The position numbers and the translations under genes were made by a program. 64,000 nt of DNA from an uncultured Nitrososphaerota archaeon (GTDB taxonomy: Archaea; Thermoproteota; Nitrososphaeria; Conexivisphaerales; DTJL01), in assembly GCA_963842885.1 (NCBI GenBank), contig CAWJIE010000003.1:128001-192000 (forward strand), written 5' to 3'. Under the pieces are notes generated by a model. The model made no database searches, was not told the DNA's origin, and was given only the letters and a program-made list of their open reading frames with translations. Positions 2,868 to 18,932 of the stretch are shown in pieces; position 1 is the first letter of the stretch; each line of letters opens with the position of its first letter.

Positions 2868-3780
2868 CTACCTGCCGCCTCCCTCGTAGCTTATTTCACC
2901 GGGCTCCACCGAGACGGGCTGAAGCCCTCCTTCTATCATGGCCTCGATCATGGAGGGGATATCGGCCTTGCTCGAGACGCTGACCAGGAACTCGCCTACA
3001 GCCGCACTGCCATCTAGCCTAAGGTTGAATGTCGCCAGGGCAGATCTTATCGCGGAGGGCTGCGCGGGGGCCAGAAGCTTCACCCTCACGCTGTCGTAGG
3101 GTCGCAGGACATCGTCGAAGGCGCCGCTGGCCGCGATCCTCCCTCCCTTCATAAGCAGCACGGAATCAGAGATCCTTCGTGCCAGGTACGCGTTATGCGT
3201 GGTCATGATGACCGAGGCTCCCTCCTGAGCTGCTTCACGGATGGAGCGTATGACCAGCTCAGAGCCGTCAGGGTCGAGCCCTGAAGTTGGCTCGTCAAGG
3301 AGGAGGACGGGCGGCTTCCCGAACATCGTCCTCGCGAGCGCCAGCCTCTGCTTCATCCCCTTGGAGAACTTCTGTACTCCCATCTTCTCGAACCCCTCCA
3401 ACCCATACTTCTTCAGCAGCGTCATGGCCTCCTCCTTGAACGCGTCCCCCTGCATGCCACGCATCCTCGGCATGGAAGAGGATGTTGTCCAGCGCCGAAA
3501 GGCGCTCATAGAGGCCGGGCACCTCACCAAGATATCCGATCTTGCTCTTGGCCATGCTGCTCCCCGCAGGATGGTCCATCACGAACGCCTCCCCCTTACG
3601 CGGTCTAATCACTCCGACGAGCGTCCTCAGGAGCGTCGTCTTGCCGGCCCCGTTGGGACCAAGCACGACCGTCACGGTCGAGCCTGGGAAGATGTAACTC
3701 ATGTCCGAAAGGACATTGTTCGATCCCAGGGTGACGCTGAGATCACGAAGCACGACGGCCGCCGAAGAGTTCTCTGCCAT
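2868..3780 (-). CDS. ABC exporter ATP-binding subunit (frameshifted)
   Basis: Walker A GPNGAGKT in ORF 3295-3780; FSKGMKQRL and LLLDEPTSGLD in ORF 2868-3530. Confidence 0.85.
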
Positions 3781-4124: not shown

Positions 4125-4610
4125 CTAGGAAGCGCCTTCCAGCTCGTTCCCCCAGAGCTGAGTCTCCTGGCGGCTGATCTGCTGACGGATTAGTATCACG
4201 AAAAGTATTGAGACCGTACCCAAGATGACCAGGTCCGCCGGCGGGACGACGACATGAAAGATCAGACCTGCGAAACCGGAATACACGACACCAATGCTGA
4301 AGACGATGAGGAAAAGCAACGAGAAGTCCTTGAAGACGAGCAGAGATATGCTGTTCTGCCCCTTCTTCGTCAGCCTGAAGGCGGTCTTTTCGGATTTCAC
4401 CTGCTCCAGGACGTAGCCGTCGTCCATCAGTTCGTGGAGCATCCGGTTGACGGGGCTCGCGTCCTTGTACCCCAGCTGCCTGGCCAGCTCGGAGATGCTG
4501 CCGCTGAAGCCCGACCTCTTCCATAGGAAGTACATCAGCTTGACCTTCGGATGCAGTAGTTCCATCGATGGGGCTCTCTTCATAGGCAGGTCTTCGATAC
4601 GGAGGCGCAC
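4125..4610 (-). CDS. Winged-HTH regulator with two C-terminal TM helices
   Basis: SISELARQLGY...VNRMLHELMDDGYV...FRLTKKG wHTH, then two hydrophobic segments. Confidence 0.7.
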   Translation of the reverse strand: MRLRIEDLPMKRAPSMELLHPKVKLMYFLWKRSGFSGSISELARQLGYKDASPVNRMLHELMDDGYVLEQVKSEKTAFRLTKKGQNSISLLVFKDFSLLFLIVFSIGVVYSGFAGLIFHVVVPPADLVILGTVSILFVILIRQQISRQETQLWGNELEGAS

Positions 4611-4681
4611 TAAAGACCCTTACGCGAAAAAACGGATGACGTTCTTGTCTAAGACATTGCAGGCTGCGGCCGAGTCCTAGG

Positions 4682-5074
4682 TCAGATCCATATCGTGGGG
4701 GGCTTCCCGAGCTTCTTGAGCGCAGGGTCGTCAGTCACACACGTCGCGGCAAGCGCGATTGCCGTCGCCGCGATCATGGACTGCGGCCCCGAGAGCCCCT
4801 GGCTGGCCTGCAGAGAGGCGGCGATGGTGGCGACCTCGGCATCGACCGCCTTGACCTTGAAGTCCTGCTGCATGAGGGAGCTCCTCGAATCGGCCACCTG
4901 CTTGCCATCGGCCTCCGTAGAGATCTTGTGCACTTCGATCAAGGTGATGACGGAGATCCACTTCGGTGCCGAGCTCTGGGCCAGCCTCTTCAGGAGCCTC
5001 GTCCTGACGGCATCCTTGGAGTAGAAGAGCTGGACGAAATAGCTGGTGTCGAAGACTAGCGCTCTTCCGGTCAA
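4682..5074 (-). CDS. vapC: VapC-like PIN-domain toxin
   Basis: VFDTS...ISVITLIEV...MIAATA...VTDD PIN pattern; overlaps the antitoxin stop. Confidence 0.85.
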   Translation of the reverse strand: MTGRALVFDTSYFVQLFYSKDAVRTRLLKRLAQSSAPKWISVITLIEVHKISTEADGKQVADSRSSLMQQDFKVKAVDAEVATIAASLQASQGLSGPQSMIAATAIALAATCVTDDPALKKLGKPPTIWI

Positions 5075-5289
5075 TCCTCGTCTCTGATCCTGTAGAGGAT
5101 CTTGAGCGCGTCTTCTAGAGAAGCGCGTCCGGTCCCCGCCAGGTCGAGGGTGGAGGTCTTCTTCTTCAACAGAATACCGTCCGCATAGGCAAGCGCCTCA
5201 AGCTTGGTACCTTCCTCTATCTTGAACTTCGTCCTCAGGTCTTTAGGTATGGTCGTCTGCCCCCGCCGGGTGACCACCACTTCTGTCAT
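5071..5289 (-). CDS. vapB: AbrB/MazE-type antitoxin
   Basis: VTRRGQTTIPKDLRTKFKIEEG AbrB motif. Confidence 0.85.
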   Translation of the reverse strand: MTEVVVTRRGQTTIPKDLRTKFKIEEGTKLEALAYADGILLKKKTSTLDLAGTGRASLEDALKILYRIRDED

Positions 5290-5426
5290 GGTAGTATCCT
5301 CTGCAATTCCTACTTTTAAGAATTCCTACTCGTTAAGCATCGTACTCTACTCTAGTCCGTCTCCTTGTCAATACTATTAGCTTCCAGACGGAATAACCAG
5401 GAATAGGATGCAGGGCTCTGGGGCCA

Positions 5427-6815
5427 CTACACGGGGCTGTCGAAGAAATTGACGCCCTTGACGTTGGTGAACTCGCGTATGCCGAACTTGGATATCTCCC
5501 GTCCATATCCCGACTCCTTCACGCCGCCGAAAGGCATCCTCGGGTCCGACTTGACCAACCCGTTGACGAAGATTACCCCGGCGTCGAGCCTCGCCGCCAT
5601 CCGGGCGGCCCTTCCCGCATCCTTCGTCCAGACGGCTGCCCCCAGCCCGTAGGCCGTGCTGTTGGCCCACTCCGCCGCCTCCGAATCGTCCTTGACCCTG
5701 ACCAGTGGCGCGACGGGGCCGAACACCTCTTCGTAGAGCACCTTCATCTTAATGCTGAAGTTCTCGAGCACCGTGGGCTGGAAGAAGTATCCGCTTCCCG
5801 CCATGCGCTTCCCGCCGTAGGTGATCTTCGCCCCCTTGCGCACTGCGTCCCTGACCTGAGACTCCACGACCCTGAGCTGCGCCTCTCTTACGAGTGGTCC
5901 GACGTCCGTCATCGGATCCAGCGGGTCACCAACGATATATGAGGAGACCTCCCGGACGAAGAGGTCCCTGAACTCTTCGTAGACCGAGTCCATGATGATG
6001 AAACGTTTGGCGTTGATGCAGCTCTGGCCCGAGTTGATCAGCCTGGATTCCGCCCCGGCCTCGGCCGCCGCCTTAAGGTCGGCGTCGTCCAGCACGATGA
6101 AGGGATCGCTCCCTCCTAGCTCCATGACGCTCTTCTTCGTGTACCTCCCAGCCAGGGCTCCGATCGCGGAGCCTGCGGCGTTGCTGCCAGTGAAGGAGAC
6201 ACCCTTGACCAGGGGCGAAGCGATCACGTCCTGGATAACCTTGTGGCCGGTCAGGATGACCTTGAAGACCCCGTCCGGGAAGCCCGCCTCCTTGAACACT
6301 TCCTGGAGAAGCAGCGCGGACCCGGGGACGATGTTCGAATGCCTAAGCAGCACGGCGTTCCCGGCCATCACGGTCGGGATTGCGAACCTCAAGGCCTGCC
6401 ACGAAGGGAAGTTCCAAGGTTCCACGCCGAGGATGACCCCCAGGGGTTCGAAGCTGACCTGACTCCTGCGCGCATCGGTCTCCACGGCCTCCGCCTCGAG
6501 CCACCTTTCACCCTCCCTAGCCACGACTTCGGCCGTCCAGGCACACTTTTCGACCTCGGCCTGCGACTGTTTGATGGGTTTGCCCATCTCATGCGTCATA
6601 ATCCGGGCGAGCTTCTCCCGCTCCCTGCGGAGGGAACCCGCCAGGGACCTCAGAAGCTCGGCGCGATCCTCGAAACTTACCTCCTTCCAGGAGGCAAAGG
6701 CGTCCGAGGAGTCCCTCGCGTAGCGGAGACATGTCTGAGGCTCCATCAATATGTACGACTCGAGCCTTCCCCCGGTCGAGGGATTGAGAGTCCAGAACTC
6801 TTCGGAAAAGCTCAT
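5427..6815 (-). CDS. NAD(P)-dependent succinate-semialdehyde dehydrogenase / aldehyde dehydrogenase
   Basis: PWNFP, FTGS, MELGGSDP, NSGQSCINAK, EEVFGPV and PFGGVKESGYGRE motifs. Confidence 0.9.
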   Translation of the reverse strand: MSFSEEFWTLNPSTGGRLESYILMEPQTCLRYARDSSDAFASWKEVSFEDRAELLRSLAGSLRREREKLARIMTHEMGKPIKQSQAEVEKCAWTAEVVAREGERWLEAEAVETDARRSQVSFEPLGVILGVEPWNFPSWQALRFAIPTVMAGNAVLLRHSNIVPGSALLLQEVFKEAGFPDGVFKVILTGHKVIQDVIASPLVKGVSFTGSNAAGSAIGALAGRYTKKSVMELGGSDPFIVLDDADLKAAAEAGAESRLINSGQSCINAKRFIIMDSVYEEFRDLFVREVSSYIVGDPLDPMTDVGPLVREAQLRVVESQVRDAVRKGAKITYGGKRMAGSGYFFQPTVLENFSIKMKVLYEEVFGPVAPLVRVKDDSEAAEWANSTAYGLGAAVWTKDAGRAARMAARLDAGVIFVNGLVKSDPRMPFGGVKESGYGREISKFGIREFTNVKGVNFFDSPV

Positions 6816-6875
6816 CTTAGTCTTGGTAGAGACGATGGCGATTTAAGCCTTGATGGCTTCGTCGCGCGCTTCCCT

Positions 6876-7430
6876 CTAGGAGGAGGACTCCGCGTCGGTG
6901 AGCAGCTCTTCCAGCACGTCGAAGGTCAGCTGCCTTCTGGACTCCTCCCTGAGGACATCGAGGTCGACTTCGGCGTTCCTCAGGACCGAGAGGACGTCCT
7001 GCCTGTCGAGGGACCTCCTGTCACCGTCCACCGTCACCTTGATCAGCCTGAGCTTCGACAGGAGAAGCCAGGTCGGGTCCTGAAGGAAGGCGTCCTCCCC
7101 CAAGACCTTGACGGGGCGTCGCGGCACCGGGTCCGCCGTCATCATGATGTCGAGGCGAAGACCGTCGCTGTCCTCGAAGGAGGCGATCCTGTATTTCGAG
7201 TCCCATGCCCGCTCCAGTGTCCCCTCCCTGACCTTCAACTTCGCCCTCCGCAGCACCTTCACCAAGCCGGGGAAGTCGGCGGGCGACGCGTGGATGATAA
7301 CGTCGACGTCAGAGGTCGTCCTCGGCCTTCCATAGTAGCTCACTGCAAGGGCGCCCGTGAGAGCGTATTCCAGCCCTCCCCTGTTGAGCTCCCTGATGAC
7401 ACGCTTCACAAAAGAATCGAACTTGACCAA
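6876..7430 (-). CDS. Nucleotidyltransferase (DUF6036/AbiEii-like)
   Basis: YALTGALAVSYYGRPRTTSDVD motif; LLLSKL...DRQD near the C-terminus. Confidence 0.75.
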   Translation of the reverse strand: MVKFDSFVKRVIRELNRGGLEYALTGALAVSYYGRPRTTSDVDVIIHASPADFPGLVKVLRRAKLKVREGTLERAWDSKYRIASFEDSDGLRLDIMMTADPVPRRPVKVLGEDAFLQDPTWLLLSKLRLIKVTVDGDRRSLDRQDVLSVLRNAEVDLDVLREESRRQLTFDVLEELLTDAESSS

Positions 7431-7990: not shown

Positions 7991-10083
7991 TTGCCCAAGT
8001 CGTTCGAAGAGCTCAGGACGTCGATCGCGGGGATTCCGCTCAAGAACCCCTTCCTCCTGGGGAGCGCTCCCCCAACTTGGGACGACGAACACATCATTCG
8101 GGCCGCCAAGCTTGGCTGGGCCGGCGCCGTCCACAAGACCATCGCCATCAAGGAGACGGAGGACCCCAGCCCGCGCATGTTCGCGCGGAAGTTCCTGGAG
8201 GACGTCGTTTCGGTTCAGAACATCGAACTCATAACGACCTATCCCAAGGAGCAGTGGGCCAAGTGGAACAAGCACATCAAGGCCGAGGCCCCGTCTGACT
8301 TCGTCCTCATCTCCTCTCTGATGGGCACCGGCGACCCCAACACCTGGACCGAGCCGCTGCAGGTGGCCCAGGAGAGCGGCGTCGACATGGTGGAGCTGAA
8401 CATGTCGTGCCCCCATGGCAGCCCCGAGCATGACATGGGTGCCGCCATCGGCCAGCACGCCGGACCTGGTGGAGCCCCTCGTCCGCCACATCAAGACGAT
8501 TCGCCAAGGTCCCCGTCATCGTCAAGCTGACACCCAACGTGACCTCCATCGTGCCGGTGGCCAGGGCCGCCCTCGCCGGCGGAGCCGACGCCCTGACCTT
8601 GACCAACACGCACGGCCCCGTCATGTCGGCCGTCGACGTCGAGAGCATGGTCCCCGCCCCCAATGTCCTGGGGAAGGGCGCCTTCGGCGGGATGTCGGGG
8701 CCCGCAGTCAAGCCCAACACGCTGAGGATCGTGGCCGAGGTCGCCAAGGCCCTCCCCGAGGCTGAGATATTCGCCATAGGCGGAGTGGAAGGGTGGCGCG
8801 ACGCCATGGAGTACATGGAACTGGGCGCCAGGGCCATCCAGATCGTGACGGGCGCCATGTTGCACGGCTACGATCTGATCGACGACCTCACGGTCGGGAC
8901 CCGCCAGTTCCTCCTTGAAGGAGGCTACGGCAGCGTCCTGGACGTCGTGGGGAAGGCCCTCCCCAACCTGGTGGCCCACTCCGACCTCTCATTCCAGGAT
9001 TGGATGAGGACATGGGTCAACCCGGCCGAATGCATCCCCTGCACGCGCTGCGTCACGACCTGTTCCGTCGTGGGCAGGAGCGCGATGACCATAGACCCAG
9101 TCCAGCTGGTCGCCCGATCCGACCCAGACGACTGCAAGGGATGCGGCCTCTGCGTCGGCGTCTGCCCGACCGGCGCCATCAAGATGCTCCCGGAGAAGGA
9201 GGCCAGGGAGCGATATCAGACGGTCAAGGCCATCTACCCGAAGGCCAGCTACTACTACCCGGAAACCATAGACGAGACCATCGCCGCCCTCCGACGCCAC
9301 GGGGCCGTCCTGAAGGCGGGCGGAACCGACCTCCTGATAAGGATGAAGCAGGGCATGATCTCGCCCACCTACGTCGTGGACCTGAAGAGCGTCAAGGGCC
9401 TCTCCTACATCAAGTCGAAGGACAAGAGCGTAGCTATAGGCACATCCACGACCATGAAGGAGCTCGCGGAGTCGAGGGTGCTCAAGGAGAAGCTTTCCGC
9501 CCTCCCCGAGACCGCCCTCAAGATGTCGGTGCAGGAGCTCCGGGAGGTCTCGACCCTCGGAGGGAACCTGTGCAACGCGTCCCCCGCTGCCGACACCGCC
9601 CCCGTCCTCCTCGCCCTCGAGGCGACCGTGAAGGCGATCGGGCCCAAGGGGAGCAGATCCATTCCGCTGGACTCCTTCTTCGTAGGACCAGGGAGGACCT
9701 CTCTCGAAGACAGCGAGCTGATTACGGAAGTCGAGGTACCTCTCCCTCCGGAGGGCACCGGCTTCGCTTTCGTGAAGGCCGGCAGGACCTACACCGACAT
9801 CGCCCAGGTCAACGTCGCGGCGTTGGTGCGAACGAAGGGAGGTGTCGTGGACTATTGCCGGATCGCGCTGGGTTCGGTCGCGCCCACTCCCATTAGGGCC
9901 AGGGGGGCCGAAGCCCTGCTGCTCGGCAAGAAGCTGGACGCCGCATCCGTCAGGGAGACAGCCAAGGCGGTCGTGAACGAAATCAACCCCATCAGCGACT
10001 CAAGAGGCACGGCCAAACAACGCCGCGACACGGCAGAGCTCCTGACAAGAAGGGCTCTGCTCCAGGCAGGCGGGCTGCTCTAG
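7991..10083 (+). CDS. Dihydropyrimidine dehydrogenase PreA-like (FMN barrel plus 2x[4Fe-4S]) fused to a CoxM/XdhB-type FAD-binding domain; two indels at about 8457 and 8501
   Basis: LKNPFLLGSAPP, ELNMSCPH, GGMSGPAVKP, CIPCTRC and CKGCGLCVGVCP, then AGGTDL, TLGGNLCNASPAAD and PISDSRG in one frame from 8539. Confidence 0.85.
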
Positions 10084-10215
10084 GCTCGCCCCTCCTTTTC
10101 TCTCACATGTAACCTAGCGGGAGCTTGGCACCCAGGCCCCGCCGGCCCTTCCTCCATGTGCAATAAGGTTAAAGCCGAGGGGGGTGTCCGCGTTGGCCAT
10201 CGGAGCCCAAGCCAG

Positions 10216-10618
10216 ATGCAGCCAATCGACGCTGATGCCAGCGAAACGACTCCTTCGGTCGCAAGCACTCTTTCCCCCGGAGATGTCCCCTCCACTGATG
10301 CCTCCCCGTTGGAGCTTTCTGACGACACCTTCGACAGCGCCGTGATCAACAATGGCCTGATGATGATCGATTTCTGGGCACCCTGGTGCAGCCCATGCCG
10401 CGCCATCGCCCCCGTCTTGGAAGAGGTAGTCAAGGAACGGGCGGGGAAGCTCGTCCTGGCCAAGCTCAACGTCCGACGAGAACCCTGCGACTCCCTCCCA
10501 CTTAGGCGTCCAGGGGATACCGACCGTCTTCATAACCAGGAGGGGCGAGATCCTCGACCACATCGTGGGGGCTGTGCCGAAGGTCGAAACCGTCCGGCGG
10601 ATTCAACCCTTCCTTTGA
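10216..10618 (+). CDS. trxA: Thioredoxin (indel at about 10473)
   Basis: DFWAPWCSPC; after the frame change DENP...GVQGIPT...IVGAVPK. Confidence 0.85.
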
Positions 10619-10623
10619 GCCCG

Positions 10624-10995
10624 TCACCTGACCCTCTCCGCGTGGTCGTCAAGGACCCCCCTGGCGAGGGCCTGCTGGACATCGTCAACGTAGAACAGGT
10701 CAGTAAGCACAATCCTCTTCCCTGACGCGACCATGGAGGTGTGGACGCCGCGGCTAGCCCACCCCGCCACGACCGCCTGGCAGTCTGGGACACACTCCAA
10801 GATCTCCTTGGCGAAGCTATCTTTATGCACCTTGTTTGCTCTTCGGTCAGCCTGGAGCACCAGACGAGGTTTGAGGCGCAGTTCGCGGCCCGAAGGCTTG
10901 GACCTCTCGATCGTAAGCACCACGAAGAACTTGGCTCTCTCAAGGTCCTGACTGATTCTCTTACCGTCATCCGTCGCGACAGCGACCTTGGCCAA
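10624..10995 (-). CDS. NifB/NifX-family (FeMo-cofactor biosynthesis domain) protein
   Basis: KVAVATDDG..ISQDLERAKFF, DCQAVVAG pattern. Confidence 0.7.
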   Translation of the reverse strand: MAKVAVATDDGKRISQDLERAKFFVVLTIERSKPSGRELRLKPRLVLQADRRANKVHKDSFAKEILECVPDCQAVVAGWASRGVHTSMVASGKRIVLTDLFYVDDVQQALARGVLDDHAERVR

Positions 10996-13788: not shown

Positions 13789-14821
13789 ATGACCCTACGC
13801 ACGTACATACTGACGAGGATAGCTCTCACCCTGCCCATGTTGCTGTTCCTCCTTAGCCTTGTCTTCGTGGTAATGAGGATCCTGCCAGGTAACCCCGTGC
13901 TTCTCAGGTTCGAGAAGAACGCCAACCCTGCCTTGATAGCAGAGTACACGCACCGCCTCGGGCTGGACCTCCCCTGGTGGCAGCAGTACCTGAACTACCT
14001 CGACTGGGCTGCTCCATGGCAACCTGGGTCTGTCCATGGTTACGTTCGACCCCGTAGCGAATCAGATCCTCTCACGGTTCCCGGCCACCCTCGAGCTCAC
14101 CCTCGGCGCCTTCATAGTGGCCGCTGTGGTAGGCCTCGTCTTCGGGTCCACGGCCGCACGACGCCCAGGAGGCAAGACCGACGGCACCGTGAAGGTGTAC
14201 GGTATCCTGATCTACGCTTTCCCCATCTTCTTCCTCGGGATGATCCTGCAGCTGGTCTTCGGAGTATGGCTCCACTGGCTGCCGATAGAGGGGAGGATGC
14301 CGCAGGGGGTCATCCCGGCCGGGCTGAACTGGGGATCGATTCACATCCAGACCGGGCTCTACACGGTGGACAGCCTGCTGGCTGGCAACATCAGGGAGTT
14401 CTTCGAGGCGCTCGAATACCTCCTCCTTCCCTGCCTCACCCTCGGCCTCGTCATCTCCGGGGTGTTCGTCAGGATGACCCGCAGCAACATGCTCGAGACG
14501 ATGAAGATGGAGTTCGTCACTGCCGCTCGCGCCAGGGGGCTTAAGGAGGACACCGTGGTCTACGGATACGCCCTTAGGAACGCCCTCCTGCCCATCGTCA
14601 CCATCATGGGGCTCCAGTTCGCCCTGCTCCTGGGCGGCGCCATCCTCACTGAGACGGAGTTCAACATCCTGGGCGTCGGATCCTACCTCGTCGACCGCAT
14701 AACCTTCAGGGACTACACGGCCGTGCAGGGGACGGTGGTGTTCTTGGCGATCCTGATATCAATGGTCAGCCTGCTGGTGGACGTCATCTACGCCTACCTG
14801 GACCCGAGGATAAGGCTGTGA
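13789..14821 (+). CDS. dppB: Peptide ABC permease B (indel at about 14003)
   Basis: ILPGNP, RFPATLEL and ARARGL...ALRNALLP EAA loop. Confidence 0.9.
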
Positions 14822-16673: not shown

Positions 16674-17679
16674 ATGACAATGTCCTTCCTAGAAGTCAGC
16701 GACCTCAAGAAGTACTTCCCCGTCCAGCACGGGCTCCTGGAGCAGCTCACGACCAGGCATCCGAGCTTCGTCAGGGCCGTGGACGGCGTCAGCTTCTCTC
16801 TGGCCAAGGGAGACATCTTCGGGCTGGTGGGCGAGAGCGGCAGCGGCAAGACCACGACCGGCCGCCTGACCATCGGCCTGATAAAACCTACGTCGGGGAA
16901 GGTCGTCTTGGAAGGAATCGAGATTCAGAGCCTCGACGGCAAGGCCTTGCGCAAGATGCGGACTAGGATGCAGATTATCTTCCAGGACCCCACCGCTTCG
17001 CTGAGCCCCAGGATGAAGGTGGGCGATGCCGTGGCCGACGCGCTCAAGCAGTTGGAGGACGCGGACGACTCAGGAGGCGAAGAGGCGCGTCCTCGAGATG
17101 TTCGAGTATGTGGGCCTCTCCCCGGCTCGTGAGATCTATTCGCGGTACCCGAGCAACCTGAGCGGCGGCCAGAAGCAGCGCGTCATCATAGCCAGGGCCC
17201 TCGTGACCCGTCCTGAATACGTGGTGGCCGACGAGCCCGTCGCCATGGTGGACGTCTCAGTTAGGGCCCAGATCCTTGACGTCATGCGCGGGATGCACGA
17301 GAAGCTGGGCCTCACCTACCTCTTCATCACGCACGACCTGGCCGTGGCCAAGTACCTCTGCAACAGGGTGGGCATAATGTACCTCGGGAAGATCGTGGAG
17401 CAGGGCGACACCAGGGAGATCTTCAATCTCCCTCTCCATCCATATACCCAGGCACTCCTCGCCGCCGTCCCCGTCCCTGACCCGTCCTCCAAGAGGGACA
17501 AGAAGATTCCACGCGGAGAGATACCGGACGCCATCAACCCTCCGCCCGGCTGTCGTTTCAATCCGCGCTGCCCCTATGCCACCGAGATATGCAGGAAGGA
17601 GGAGCCCCCGCTGAGAGAGGTGGGTCCTTCGCACACCGGTCACCTCGTGGCCTGCCACTGGGCGGAGAAGTTCCTGTAG
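16674..17679 (+). CDS. dppF: Peptide ABC ATP-binding subunit F (indel at about 17065)
   Basis: GESGSGKT, LSGGQKQR, GCRFNPRC and VACH. Confidence 0.9.
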
Positions 17680-17713: not shown

Positions 17714-18500
17714 ATGAGGCGTAACCACAATCAGCGGGAGACAAGCCATGTCTCTGGACGACGGACGCGCGTGCGCAGGATAGCGCTGGACTTCGAGGCG
17801 CGCTATCCCACCGCCGGCGCCCGCGGGGCTCTCGCATACGAACAGAGGACGGTCATGGAGGCCCTGGGGCCCCTGCGCCCGGGGGTCCTCTTGGACGTGG
17901 GCACGGGCACAGGGAGGCTCATCAACTTCCCTCCGCCTCCCGAGGTCGTCGGGATGGACTTCTCCGAGGACGATCTGGAATGGGCCGTGGAGCGCTACTC
18001 TGGAGACCGGTCCAAGCACTTTGTGCTGGGCATCGGCGTCCAGCCTCCCGTTCAGGGACGACGCATTCGACGAAGTGCTCAGCATCAGGGTGATCAAGTT
18101 CCTGGAGGATCCCGAAGCGGCCGTTTCGGAGATGGCGGACGTTCTGAAGCCCGGCGGCAGGCTGGTCGTGGACATCAGCAACAAGTTCTCCCCTTCTGCG
18201 TTCATTCGGCGGCTGGGGTCGTGGATGAGGATACGTTCGCCCTCGAGGGCCTACTTCACGCACGGTGACGGTCTCAAGATGATGGCCTCCGTGGGCCTCA
18301 CACCTTTCACGTCGAGGCCCCTCTTCAAGGTGGACCCCTCCCTGTGGACGGCCCTGCGGCACGAGAGGTTAGTGAGGCTGGCGGAATCGCTGGAGCGTCT
18401 CCTCGACAGGAGGACGGGAGTATGGTTCCTGTCGCGATACGTAGTCATAGCCTGCGAGAAACCCTTCTCGAACTTGCCAGGTCCTCCGAGAGGGAAGTCT
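17714..18500 (+). CDS. Class I SAM-dependent methyltransferase (indels; both ends approximate)
   Basis: LLDVGTGTGR, GMDFS, LPFRDDAFD and VLKPGG across two frames. Confidence 0.7.
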
Positions 18501-18537
18501 TATACCTCAGGGGCCCTTGTTTCCCTCTTGATCGCGT

Positions 18538-18932
18538 TTGCCAGTCAAGATCCCAGCGGCAGGCAAGAGGTTGTTGGACGGGAAGAACTTCGCCAGCTTC
18601 GCCACTCTCATGAAGGACGGCTCCCCCCAGGTGAGCCCCGTCTGGATATCGAGAGACGGCGACGTCGTGCTGGTGAACACTAGCGTGGGCAGGGTCAAGG
18701 AGAGGAACGTGCTCCGCGACCCGAGGGTGGCCATCTGCGTCTTCGACATGGAGAACCCCTACAGGAAGATGTTGCTCCGGGGACGGGTGGTGGAGATTGT
18801 CAGCGAGAGGAGCAAGGGAGCACATCGACGCCCTTTCGATGAAGTACACGGGGACACAAGTACGCAGGGATGAAACCAAATGAGAAGCGCGTCATCTTCA
18901 GGATAGCGCCCGCGTCGGTGAGCGTGAGCTAG
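18538..18932 (+). CDS. PPOX-class F420-dependent oxidoreductase (indels)
   Basis: FATLMKDGSPQVSPVW, KERNVLRDPRVAI and EKRVIFRIAP. Confidence 0.85.

Follow-up and report, generated by a model that had tools for sequence, protein, structure and literature searches.

The window analysed, a stretch of 64,000 nucleotides from an uncultured Nitrososphaerota archaeon (contig CAWJIE010000003.1, positions 128,001 to 192,000), carries on its forward strand a preA-coxM fusion gene (7991..10083) with a TTG start and a TAG stop, which comprises 696 codons when intact. The N-terminal half of its product consists of an FMN (beta/alpha)8 barrel of the dihydropyrimidine dehydrogenase (DPD) type (residues 1-335, 7991..8997; PF01180 and the PreA model NF006183) followed by a 2x[4Fe-4S] ferredoxin domain (residues 336-400, 8998..9192; PF14697). 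A junction of residues 401-417 (9193..9243) leads into a CoxM/XdhB FAD module with an FAD-binding part (9244..9744; PF00941) and a C-terminal domain (9766..10068; PF03450). A terminator-like hairpin, which is a consensus match only, lies over the stop codon on the same strand (10069..10090); four such hairpins were found in the region against 2.1 expected, and Rfam gave no matches within the window.

Reading Frame of the Fusion Gene

Positions 8503-10083 form a single open frame of 526 codons, whose Pfam content, all over the cut-offs, is DHO_dh (C-terminal half), Fer4_21, FAD_binding_5 and CO_deh_flav_C. The last two domains were matched over 3-169 of 170 and 2-102 of 102 positions, respectively, in agreement with the complete CoxM/XdhB FAD subunit described in the initial annotation. 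The first 156 residues (7991-8458) align with the start of the PreA model, but in another frame, and the ELNMSCPH motif lies in a separate ORF (7991-8530) that closes at a stop. The frame is broken twice on the forward strand (8459..8502) by single extra bases at about 8459-8460 and 8495-8502. The earlier claim that ELNMSCPH is in frame with the ferredoxin and FAD parts had therefore to be corrected; the continuation of the ferredoxin motifs into the FAD module, in frame and with no stop at the junction, was confirmed. It had also been stated that no Met is present where the FAD module begins; an in-frame ATG (9184, M398) occurs 20 codons earlier, inside the ferredoxin domain, and is replaced by Leu/Ile in two of nine homologues.

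Both extra bases are missing from the contigs of all four sequencing runs aligned to the window (three from peat and one from freshwater, belonging to two studies; the material compared was assembled contigs), and for this reason the two frame breaks are likely to be assembly errors. One 2,550-base contig covers 7947-10200 including the junction, with no indel listed at 9180-9270, and contigs from runs X1 and X3 cross the junction; the junction proposed at the outset stands. Both pieces in the window match the intact homologue P0003 at 99% identity, and the nearest 90% cluster (eight members) is made up of six intact 696-aa proteins and the window assembly's own 179- and 514-aa fragments. Indel errors seem to be common in the window assembly, since several ordinary genes (ABC ATPases, thioredoxin, permease, methyltransferase) are seemingly split across frames, at 2868-3780, 10156-10725, 13789-14821, 16674-17679 and 17714-18683. 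A pseudogene was rejected for the lineage, given the absence of the breaks in 4/4 runs and the similar breakage of other window genes.

Distribution and Ancestry

When the junction region was used as query, 37 matches were obtained among 1,539 candidates, including nine full-length fusions (696-702 aa) and one fragment. The nine full-length clusters are 58-94% identical to P0003, and among the members examined for seven of them 19 of 22 were full length. Because these nine clusters have the junction in common it is not a product of chance, and a chimeric join or two separate genes were ruled out by the shared junction, the bridging contigs and the intact cluster members. The fusion of a PreA part with a CoxM/XdhB FAD module is real.

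The architecture is not a common one, since a single protein among the 150 top-ranking representatives, out of 1.84 billion, spans both halves. The fusion was found in three of 36 whole genomes of the order (G000, G011 and G012), and no further one was detected in samples of 401 genomes of the class and 401 of the phylum, with two candidates scored per genome; a common architecture was rejected on the representatives and these two samples. Relatives at 84-87% identity carry the label Conexivisphaerales archaeon. Loci L001/L002 share the neighbourhoods of G011/G012 and were left out of separate counting. Upstream of the fusion gene, at 4125-7430 of the window, genes were found for winged-helix and PIN-domain proteins, an aldehyde dehydrogenase (GabD-like, under the cut-offs) and an AbiEii-like nucleotidyltransferase; this set is retained in G011 and G012, and the more distant locus L008 retains the PIN and winged-helix genes only. 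Databases label the fusion protein plain PreA. The published literature was searched, with most subscription journals outside coverage, and gave no paper on this architecture; the supplements of genome papers devoted to these archaea may carry the gene under the name PreA.

The fusions group together in the trees of both halves (support 98 and 99), and since each half forms one group in its tree the data are consistent with a single fusion event. The CoxM tree gave one origin (support 99) and left the donor of the FAD module unplaced. In the PreA tree the sister group consists of five stand-alone archaeal PreAs with a short tail (support 95-100).

Features of the Two Halves

P0003 (381 bits) and P0012 (405 bits) passed the cut-off of the PreA model NF006183 (335); with the PyrD model the fusion reached 166 bits against a cut-off of 269. 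All 23 chosen FMN/substrate positions are invariant in the nine fusions; the roles of these positions are assumed by us, except that of the counterpart of pig DPD C671. The catalytic loop N137-M-S139-C140 (8399..8410, forward strand), identified by alignment to N668-S670-C671 of pig DPD, is also invariant in 9/9 fusions, and C140 aligns with C671, described as the catalytic acid of the pig enzyme (PMC8097209). The substrate loop is of the DPD type (N77-I-E79-L80-I81), and the ferredoxin domain contains eight invariant Cys residues (347, 350, 353, 357, 381, 384, 387 and 391). When compared with four intact loci, with dS near saturation, dN/dS was 0.08-0.14 for the barrel and 0.02-0.05 for the ferredoxin domain. 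The substrate of the fusion is predicted to be a pyrimidine.

It is very improbable that the barrel instead reduces another ring, be it a 2,8-dioxopurine (a UacX/YgfK-like step) or orotate. The PydA-like UacX is described as reducing yanthine (PMC12507026), and the fusion is the only DHO_dh-family gene in G000 and G011, while homologues of pyrB and pyrC persist there; against these points, the substrate loop is DPD-type, YgeW was over the cut-off in none of 36 genomes of the order and SsnA in none of 10, and the best SsnA-like gene sits among housekeeping genes. A reductive urate cluster was rejected on the same lack of YgeW or SsnA over the cut-off.

In the FAD module all the FAD motifs are kept (AGGTD 442-446, TxGGN 521-525 and ASPAAD 529-534), and K595, R598 and D602 are retained in the C-terminal domain. 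At 98 positions conserved in free subunits (107 free FAD subunits compared) the fusion keeps 77, keeps 10 partly and has lost 11, among them S513, Q515, N518, E675 and Y676; the last four, present in 70-95% of the free subunits, are replaced in 9/9 fusions. M511 of the fusion aligns with Phe336 of rat XDH, a residue described as packing on the flavin re face (PMC3509653), so that the group S513/Q515/N518 adjoins the flavin. The fusion scored under every cut-off of the NCBIfam equivalog models of medium subunits. The junction comprises a helix common to the unfused sister PreAs and then the start of the FAD subunit. Against the same four loci, again with dS near saturation, dN/dS was 0.04-0.28 for the 17-codon linker and 0.11-0.19 for the FAD half, which evolves about twice as fast as the barrel; both halves are under purifying selection.

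The AlphaFold2 model obtained with 52 sequences had a pLDDT of 89 and a pTM of 0.78 (61 and 0.48, respectively, with a shallower alignment of nine sequences). Residues 2-402 of the model fit onto residues 527-1008 of pig DPD (Z 47.6, 1.7 A, 396 residues), which puts the 2x[4Fe-4S] domain where DPD has it, and the modelled FAD half compared with CutM gave a TM of 0.92. The loop with K595, R598 and D602, which bears on possible NAD(P)+ binding at the si face of the flavin, had low pLDDT. For undocked halves a pTM of about 0.55-0.64 was estimated, and reaching 0.78 would take a cross-domain error of about 8 A; the pTM over the undocked estimate gives a hint, but only a hint, that the FAD half may be docked onto the PreA half. 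P0006 searched against the ESM Atlas gave no usable match, which says nothing on novelty or absence.

Genes for Electron Partners

Neither a pyrimidine gene nor a preT, Mo large subunit (L) or 2Fe-2S small subunit (S) gene adjoins the fusion in the window or in the intact loci examined, and the domain searches of window and loci thus bore out the initial annotation, which had found no preT, L or S gene adjacent. A GltD-like module (Fer4_20 + Pyr_redox_2) was present neither in the fusion chain nor in an adjacent gene. GltD-like/Fer4_20 genes number one in G000, one in G011 and two in G012; in G000 (87% complete) the only Fer4_20 gene is located on a different contig next to a PyrK-like gene, and these two are presumably NfnAB. 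The GltD-like proteins of the fusion genomes could act in trans.

The sister-PreA genomes G010 (95% complete) and G548 (99%) have no Fer4_20 gene, and in one sister lineage the stand-alone PreA is divergent beside EtfAB. Since this is so, the PreA branch of the fusion had lost PreT and appears to recruit other electron partners, of which the FAD module is one. The sister PreAs without PreT beside EtfB/EtfA, near a nitroreductase (L004:8258-11305, L012:6236-9320, L013 and L054), are candidates for an ETF-linked DPD; EtfAB is absent beside the stand-alone PreA of G010. The PreA of the next branch (G077) occurs with dihydropyrimidinase, CN-hydrolase and aminotransferase genes and no preT, whereas family f27 shows the usual order preT-preA-dihydropyrimidinase in 13/13 loci (ORF reading; one Pfam-checked). 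PreA-like genes of family f38, of about 350 aa and without the ferredoxin domain (L071:1507-2553 and L072:1471-2523), adjoin dihydropyrimidinase-, nitrilase- and transporter-like genes and represent another PreT-less DPD variant.

Two alternative readings bear on these partners. In one, which is unlikely, the FAD domain would be wired to the clusters and its partner would be a quinone, ETF, ferredoxin or O2, and not NAD(P)(H). CoxM-type FAD sites are described as serving other acceptors, for example menaquinone via CoxG (PMC12202499), and the sister PreAs beside EtfAB point the same way; the ETF neighbours, however, were all seen in a single related lineage, and the G010 copy lacks them. In the other, to which we give little credence, the FAD domain would be unwired, with a separate or regulatory role, and PreA would be fed by ferredoxin or by an NfnAB/GltD-like protein in trans. 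That an FAD domain is dispensable is shown by the ferredoxin-dependent PydAc (PMC7332683), and the unfused sisters without PreT and the GltD-like genes of the fusion genomes would fit, the fused FAD domain perhaps not being needed because the sister clade works without one. Against an unwired domain stand the retention of the fusion down to 58% identity at 696-702 aa, the purifying selection on FAD half and linker, and a model pTM over the undocked estimate.

Molybdenum-Hydroxylase Sets

In G000 the Mo-hydroxylase loci comprise ten small and ten large subunits, all of them accompanied by an FAD gene of their own. Such a gene lies within about 3 kb of the small subunit in 10/10 cases in G000, 11/11 in G012 and 10/11 in G011, the unpaired G011 locus running off the contig end. 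The L/M/S set nearest to the fusion, about 31 kb upstream, also has its own FAD subunit. As the small subunits already have their own FAD genes, the fused FAD domain is surplus to the L/S sets.

Mo-hydroxylase clusters with a conserved composition, one or two L-M-S sets together with aspartate carbamoyltransferase (pyrB) and dihydroorotase (pyrC), were seen at G000:C3:459598-475671 and at L020, L021, L027-L028, L031-L032 and L052; in the genus the cluster also has indolepyruvate-oxidoreductase-like and acyl-CoA synthetase-like genes, and G002 has carbamate kinase. Duplicate FAD-subunit genes, identical or near-identical, occur in G000 at C3:448409-449350, C3:547814-548755 and C3:16395-17336, as does a duplicated carbamate kinase - carbamoyltransferase - PLP enzyme block (C2:282503-285834 and C4:22762-26770); these duplicates reflect either recent duplication or assembly redundancy. 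P0305 (1,286 aa) combines a Mo large subunit with a partial FAD_binding_5 and Fer4_20, the FAD fold being again paired with [4Fe-4S] domains.

The initial annotation had offered, as one of two readings, a hydroxylase subunit coupling purine/pyridine oxidation to pyrimidine-ring reduction. In such a case the FAD domain would be the medium subunit of a Mo hydroxylase in trans, with the chain Mo - 2Fe-2S - FAD - 4Fe-4S - FMN, and hydroxylation of one heterocycle would drive reduction of the pyrimidine ring. The completeness of the FAD domain and the ten L/S sets of G000 would allow for it, as would the nearest relatives among free subunits of the order (54-56% identical to P0012), which lie in the L-M-S clusters with pyrB and pyrC, and Mo enzymes and DPD-like reductases are described as sharing the reductive urate degradation pathway (PMC12507026). 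However, none of the intact copies examined has an L or S gene next to it, the three genomes gave no orphan L/S set, Q515, N518, E675 and Y676 of the free subunits are replaced in all the fusions, and a search for longer fusions that include L or S found none, which is weak evidence; coupling of this kind is decidedly unlikely. An equally doubtful arrangement is a three-way hub, in which the hydroxylase L/S and the PreA clusters would bind to different faces of the FAD domain; if true, a Mo-FAD-FMN complex would couple the oxidation of one heterocycle to pyrimidine-ring reduction with no need for free NAD(H).

Pyrimidine Pathway in the Fusion Genomes

Dihydropyrimidinase is over the cut-off in G000, on another contig and unlinked to the fusion, and in 8 of 36 genomes of the order, five of which lack the fusion. 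No convincing ureidopropionase was found, the best nitrilase match reaching only 27-32%, and no M20 hydantoinase-pathway amidase was detected in G000 or G011. In G000 pyrD, pyrE and pyrF were not found, the flanks of the G012 cassette being adjacent on one G000 contig, and in G011 pyrD and pyrF were not found. G012 has the fusion and all of pyrD/E/F, on which ground a role of the fusion as a stand-in for pyrD was rejected. That G000 keeps pyrB/pyrC though pyrD/E/F were not found hints at a catabolic route through dihydroorotate.

If the partner were one other than NAD(P)(H), the simplest job of the fusion would be the conversion of dihydrouracil to uracil for salvage. Such a role would suit the missing pyr genes of G000 and G011, the lack of a ureidopropionase and the uracil phosphoribosyltransferase present in all three fusion genomes; it is weakened by the pyrD/E/F of G012 and by the completeness of the G000 and G011 genomes, which is 87-88%.

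Proposed Electron Route

On balance we lean towards a single-chain, likely homodimeric DPD in which NAD(P)(H) is the redox partner of the borrowed FAD domain. This is the other reading offered initially, a single-chain DPD with a different flavin module, and it is favoured by the PreA cut-off passed, the invariant active-site positions, the lack of a dedicated PreT, the PreT-less sister clade and the lack of an L/S pair in need of an FAD domain. The intact FAD module, the dihydropyrimidinase genes in G000 and beside the PreA of the next branch, and the model pTM over the undocked estimate also speak for it. Counted against it are the incomplete-looking pathway, the unlinked dihydropyrimidinase, the lack of a pyrimidine neighbour gene, the faster-changing FAD half, the sister clade that does without a fused FAD domain, the GltD-like proteins elsewhere in the fusion genomes and the low pTM from the shallower alignment. 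This single-chain reading predicts a dimer, a direct wiring between FAD and clusters and NAD(P)(H) as the cosubstrate.

In this scheme the borrowed CoxM/XdhB FAD module would stand in for PreT. FAD would receive a hydride from NAD(P)H and hand electrons singly to the two [4Fe-4S] clusters, a step for which the model hints at a docked arrangement. The clusters would feed FMN, probably that of the partner subunit in a homodimer; a homodimer is predicted from the identity of fold, because the C-terminal clusters of pig DPD are described as feeding the FMN of the other subunit (PMC8097209). A hydride from FMN and a proton from C140 would then saturate the 5,6 bond in uracil or thymine, over an electron wire of two clusters instead of four. 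The enzyme might run in either direction, reduction feeding the unlinked dihydropyrimidinase or dihydrouracil oxidation serving salvage.

Comparison with Known Systems

DPD is the textbook long-range electron wire (FAD, four clusters and FMN) and clears 5-fluorouracil. If the fusion can function on its own, a flavin module of unrelated fold and a wire of just two clusters would suffice, and the need for the two GltD-type clusters would become directly testable. If the FAD part replaces the usual electron-supplying partner, as is likely, it would be a new way to power a known enzyme. The fusion would add an electron-input solution beside PreT and ferredoxin, hidden in databases under 'PreA', and, if the reading is true, would present a xanthine-oxidase-family FAD module outside a molybdoenzyme and a small soluble model for NAD(H) chemistry. 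Its reach is narrow: it concerns a single small clade of archaea, and the chemistry at its substrate site is known.

With E. coli PreT-PreA and pig DPD (PDB 1gth) the fusion has in common the FMN barrel, the C-terminal 2x[4Fe-4S] domain, the catalytic Cys and the substrate loop. Unlike them it lacks the GltD-like FAD/NAD(P)H module and the Fer4_20 clusters, and has an unrelated CoxM-fold FAD module at the C-terminus and two clusters, not four. The view that DPD takes its electrons from PreT holds as the usual case, but not as the only one, a ferredoxin-dependent form without an FAD domain having been published (PMC7332683). PydAc of Clostridium chromiireducens (PMC7332683) and UacX (PMC12507026) are described as having a PreA-like catalytic part without the GltD-like FAD domain, which shows that the electron input of the PreA family is exchangeable. 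According to its description PydAc has both ferredoxin domains and no FAD site (PMC7332683), whereas the fusion has one ferredoxin domain and an FAD site. The fusion probably works like a DPD and belongs outside both the canonical PreTA/DPD, since it has no GltD module, and PydAc.

The FAD module resembles CutM/CoxM (1ffu, 1n5w), XdhB and the glyceraldehyde oxidoreductase beta subunit (4zoh) in the whole fold and the FAD motifs. In contrast to the medium subunits of the xanthine oxidase family it is joined behind a [4Fe-4S] domain, has no L/S gene nearby and has the Q/N/E/Y positions replaced; on gene context the fusion stands outside the Mo-hydroxylase trimers. In its logic it is similar to PyrD-PyrK (class 1B), described as an FMN barrel powered by an FAD/Fe-S module of separate origin (PMC8097209), but PyrK is FNR-like with a [2Fe-2S] cluster, and the barrel of the fusion is of the DPD type and under the PyrD cut-offs.
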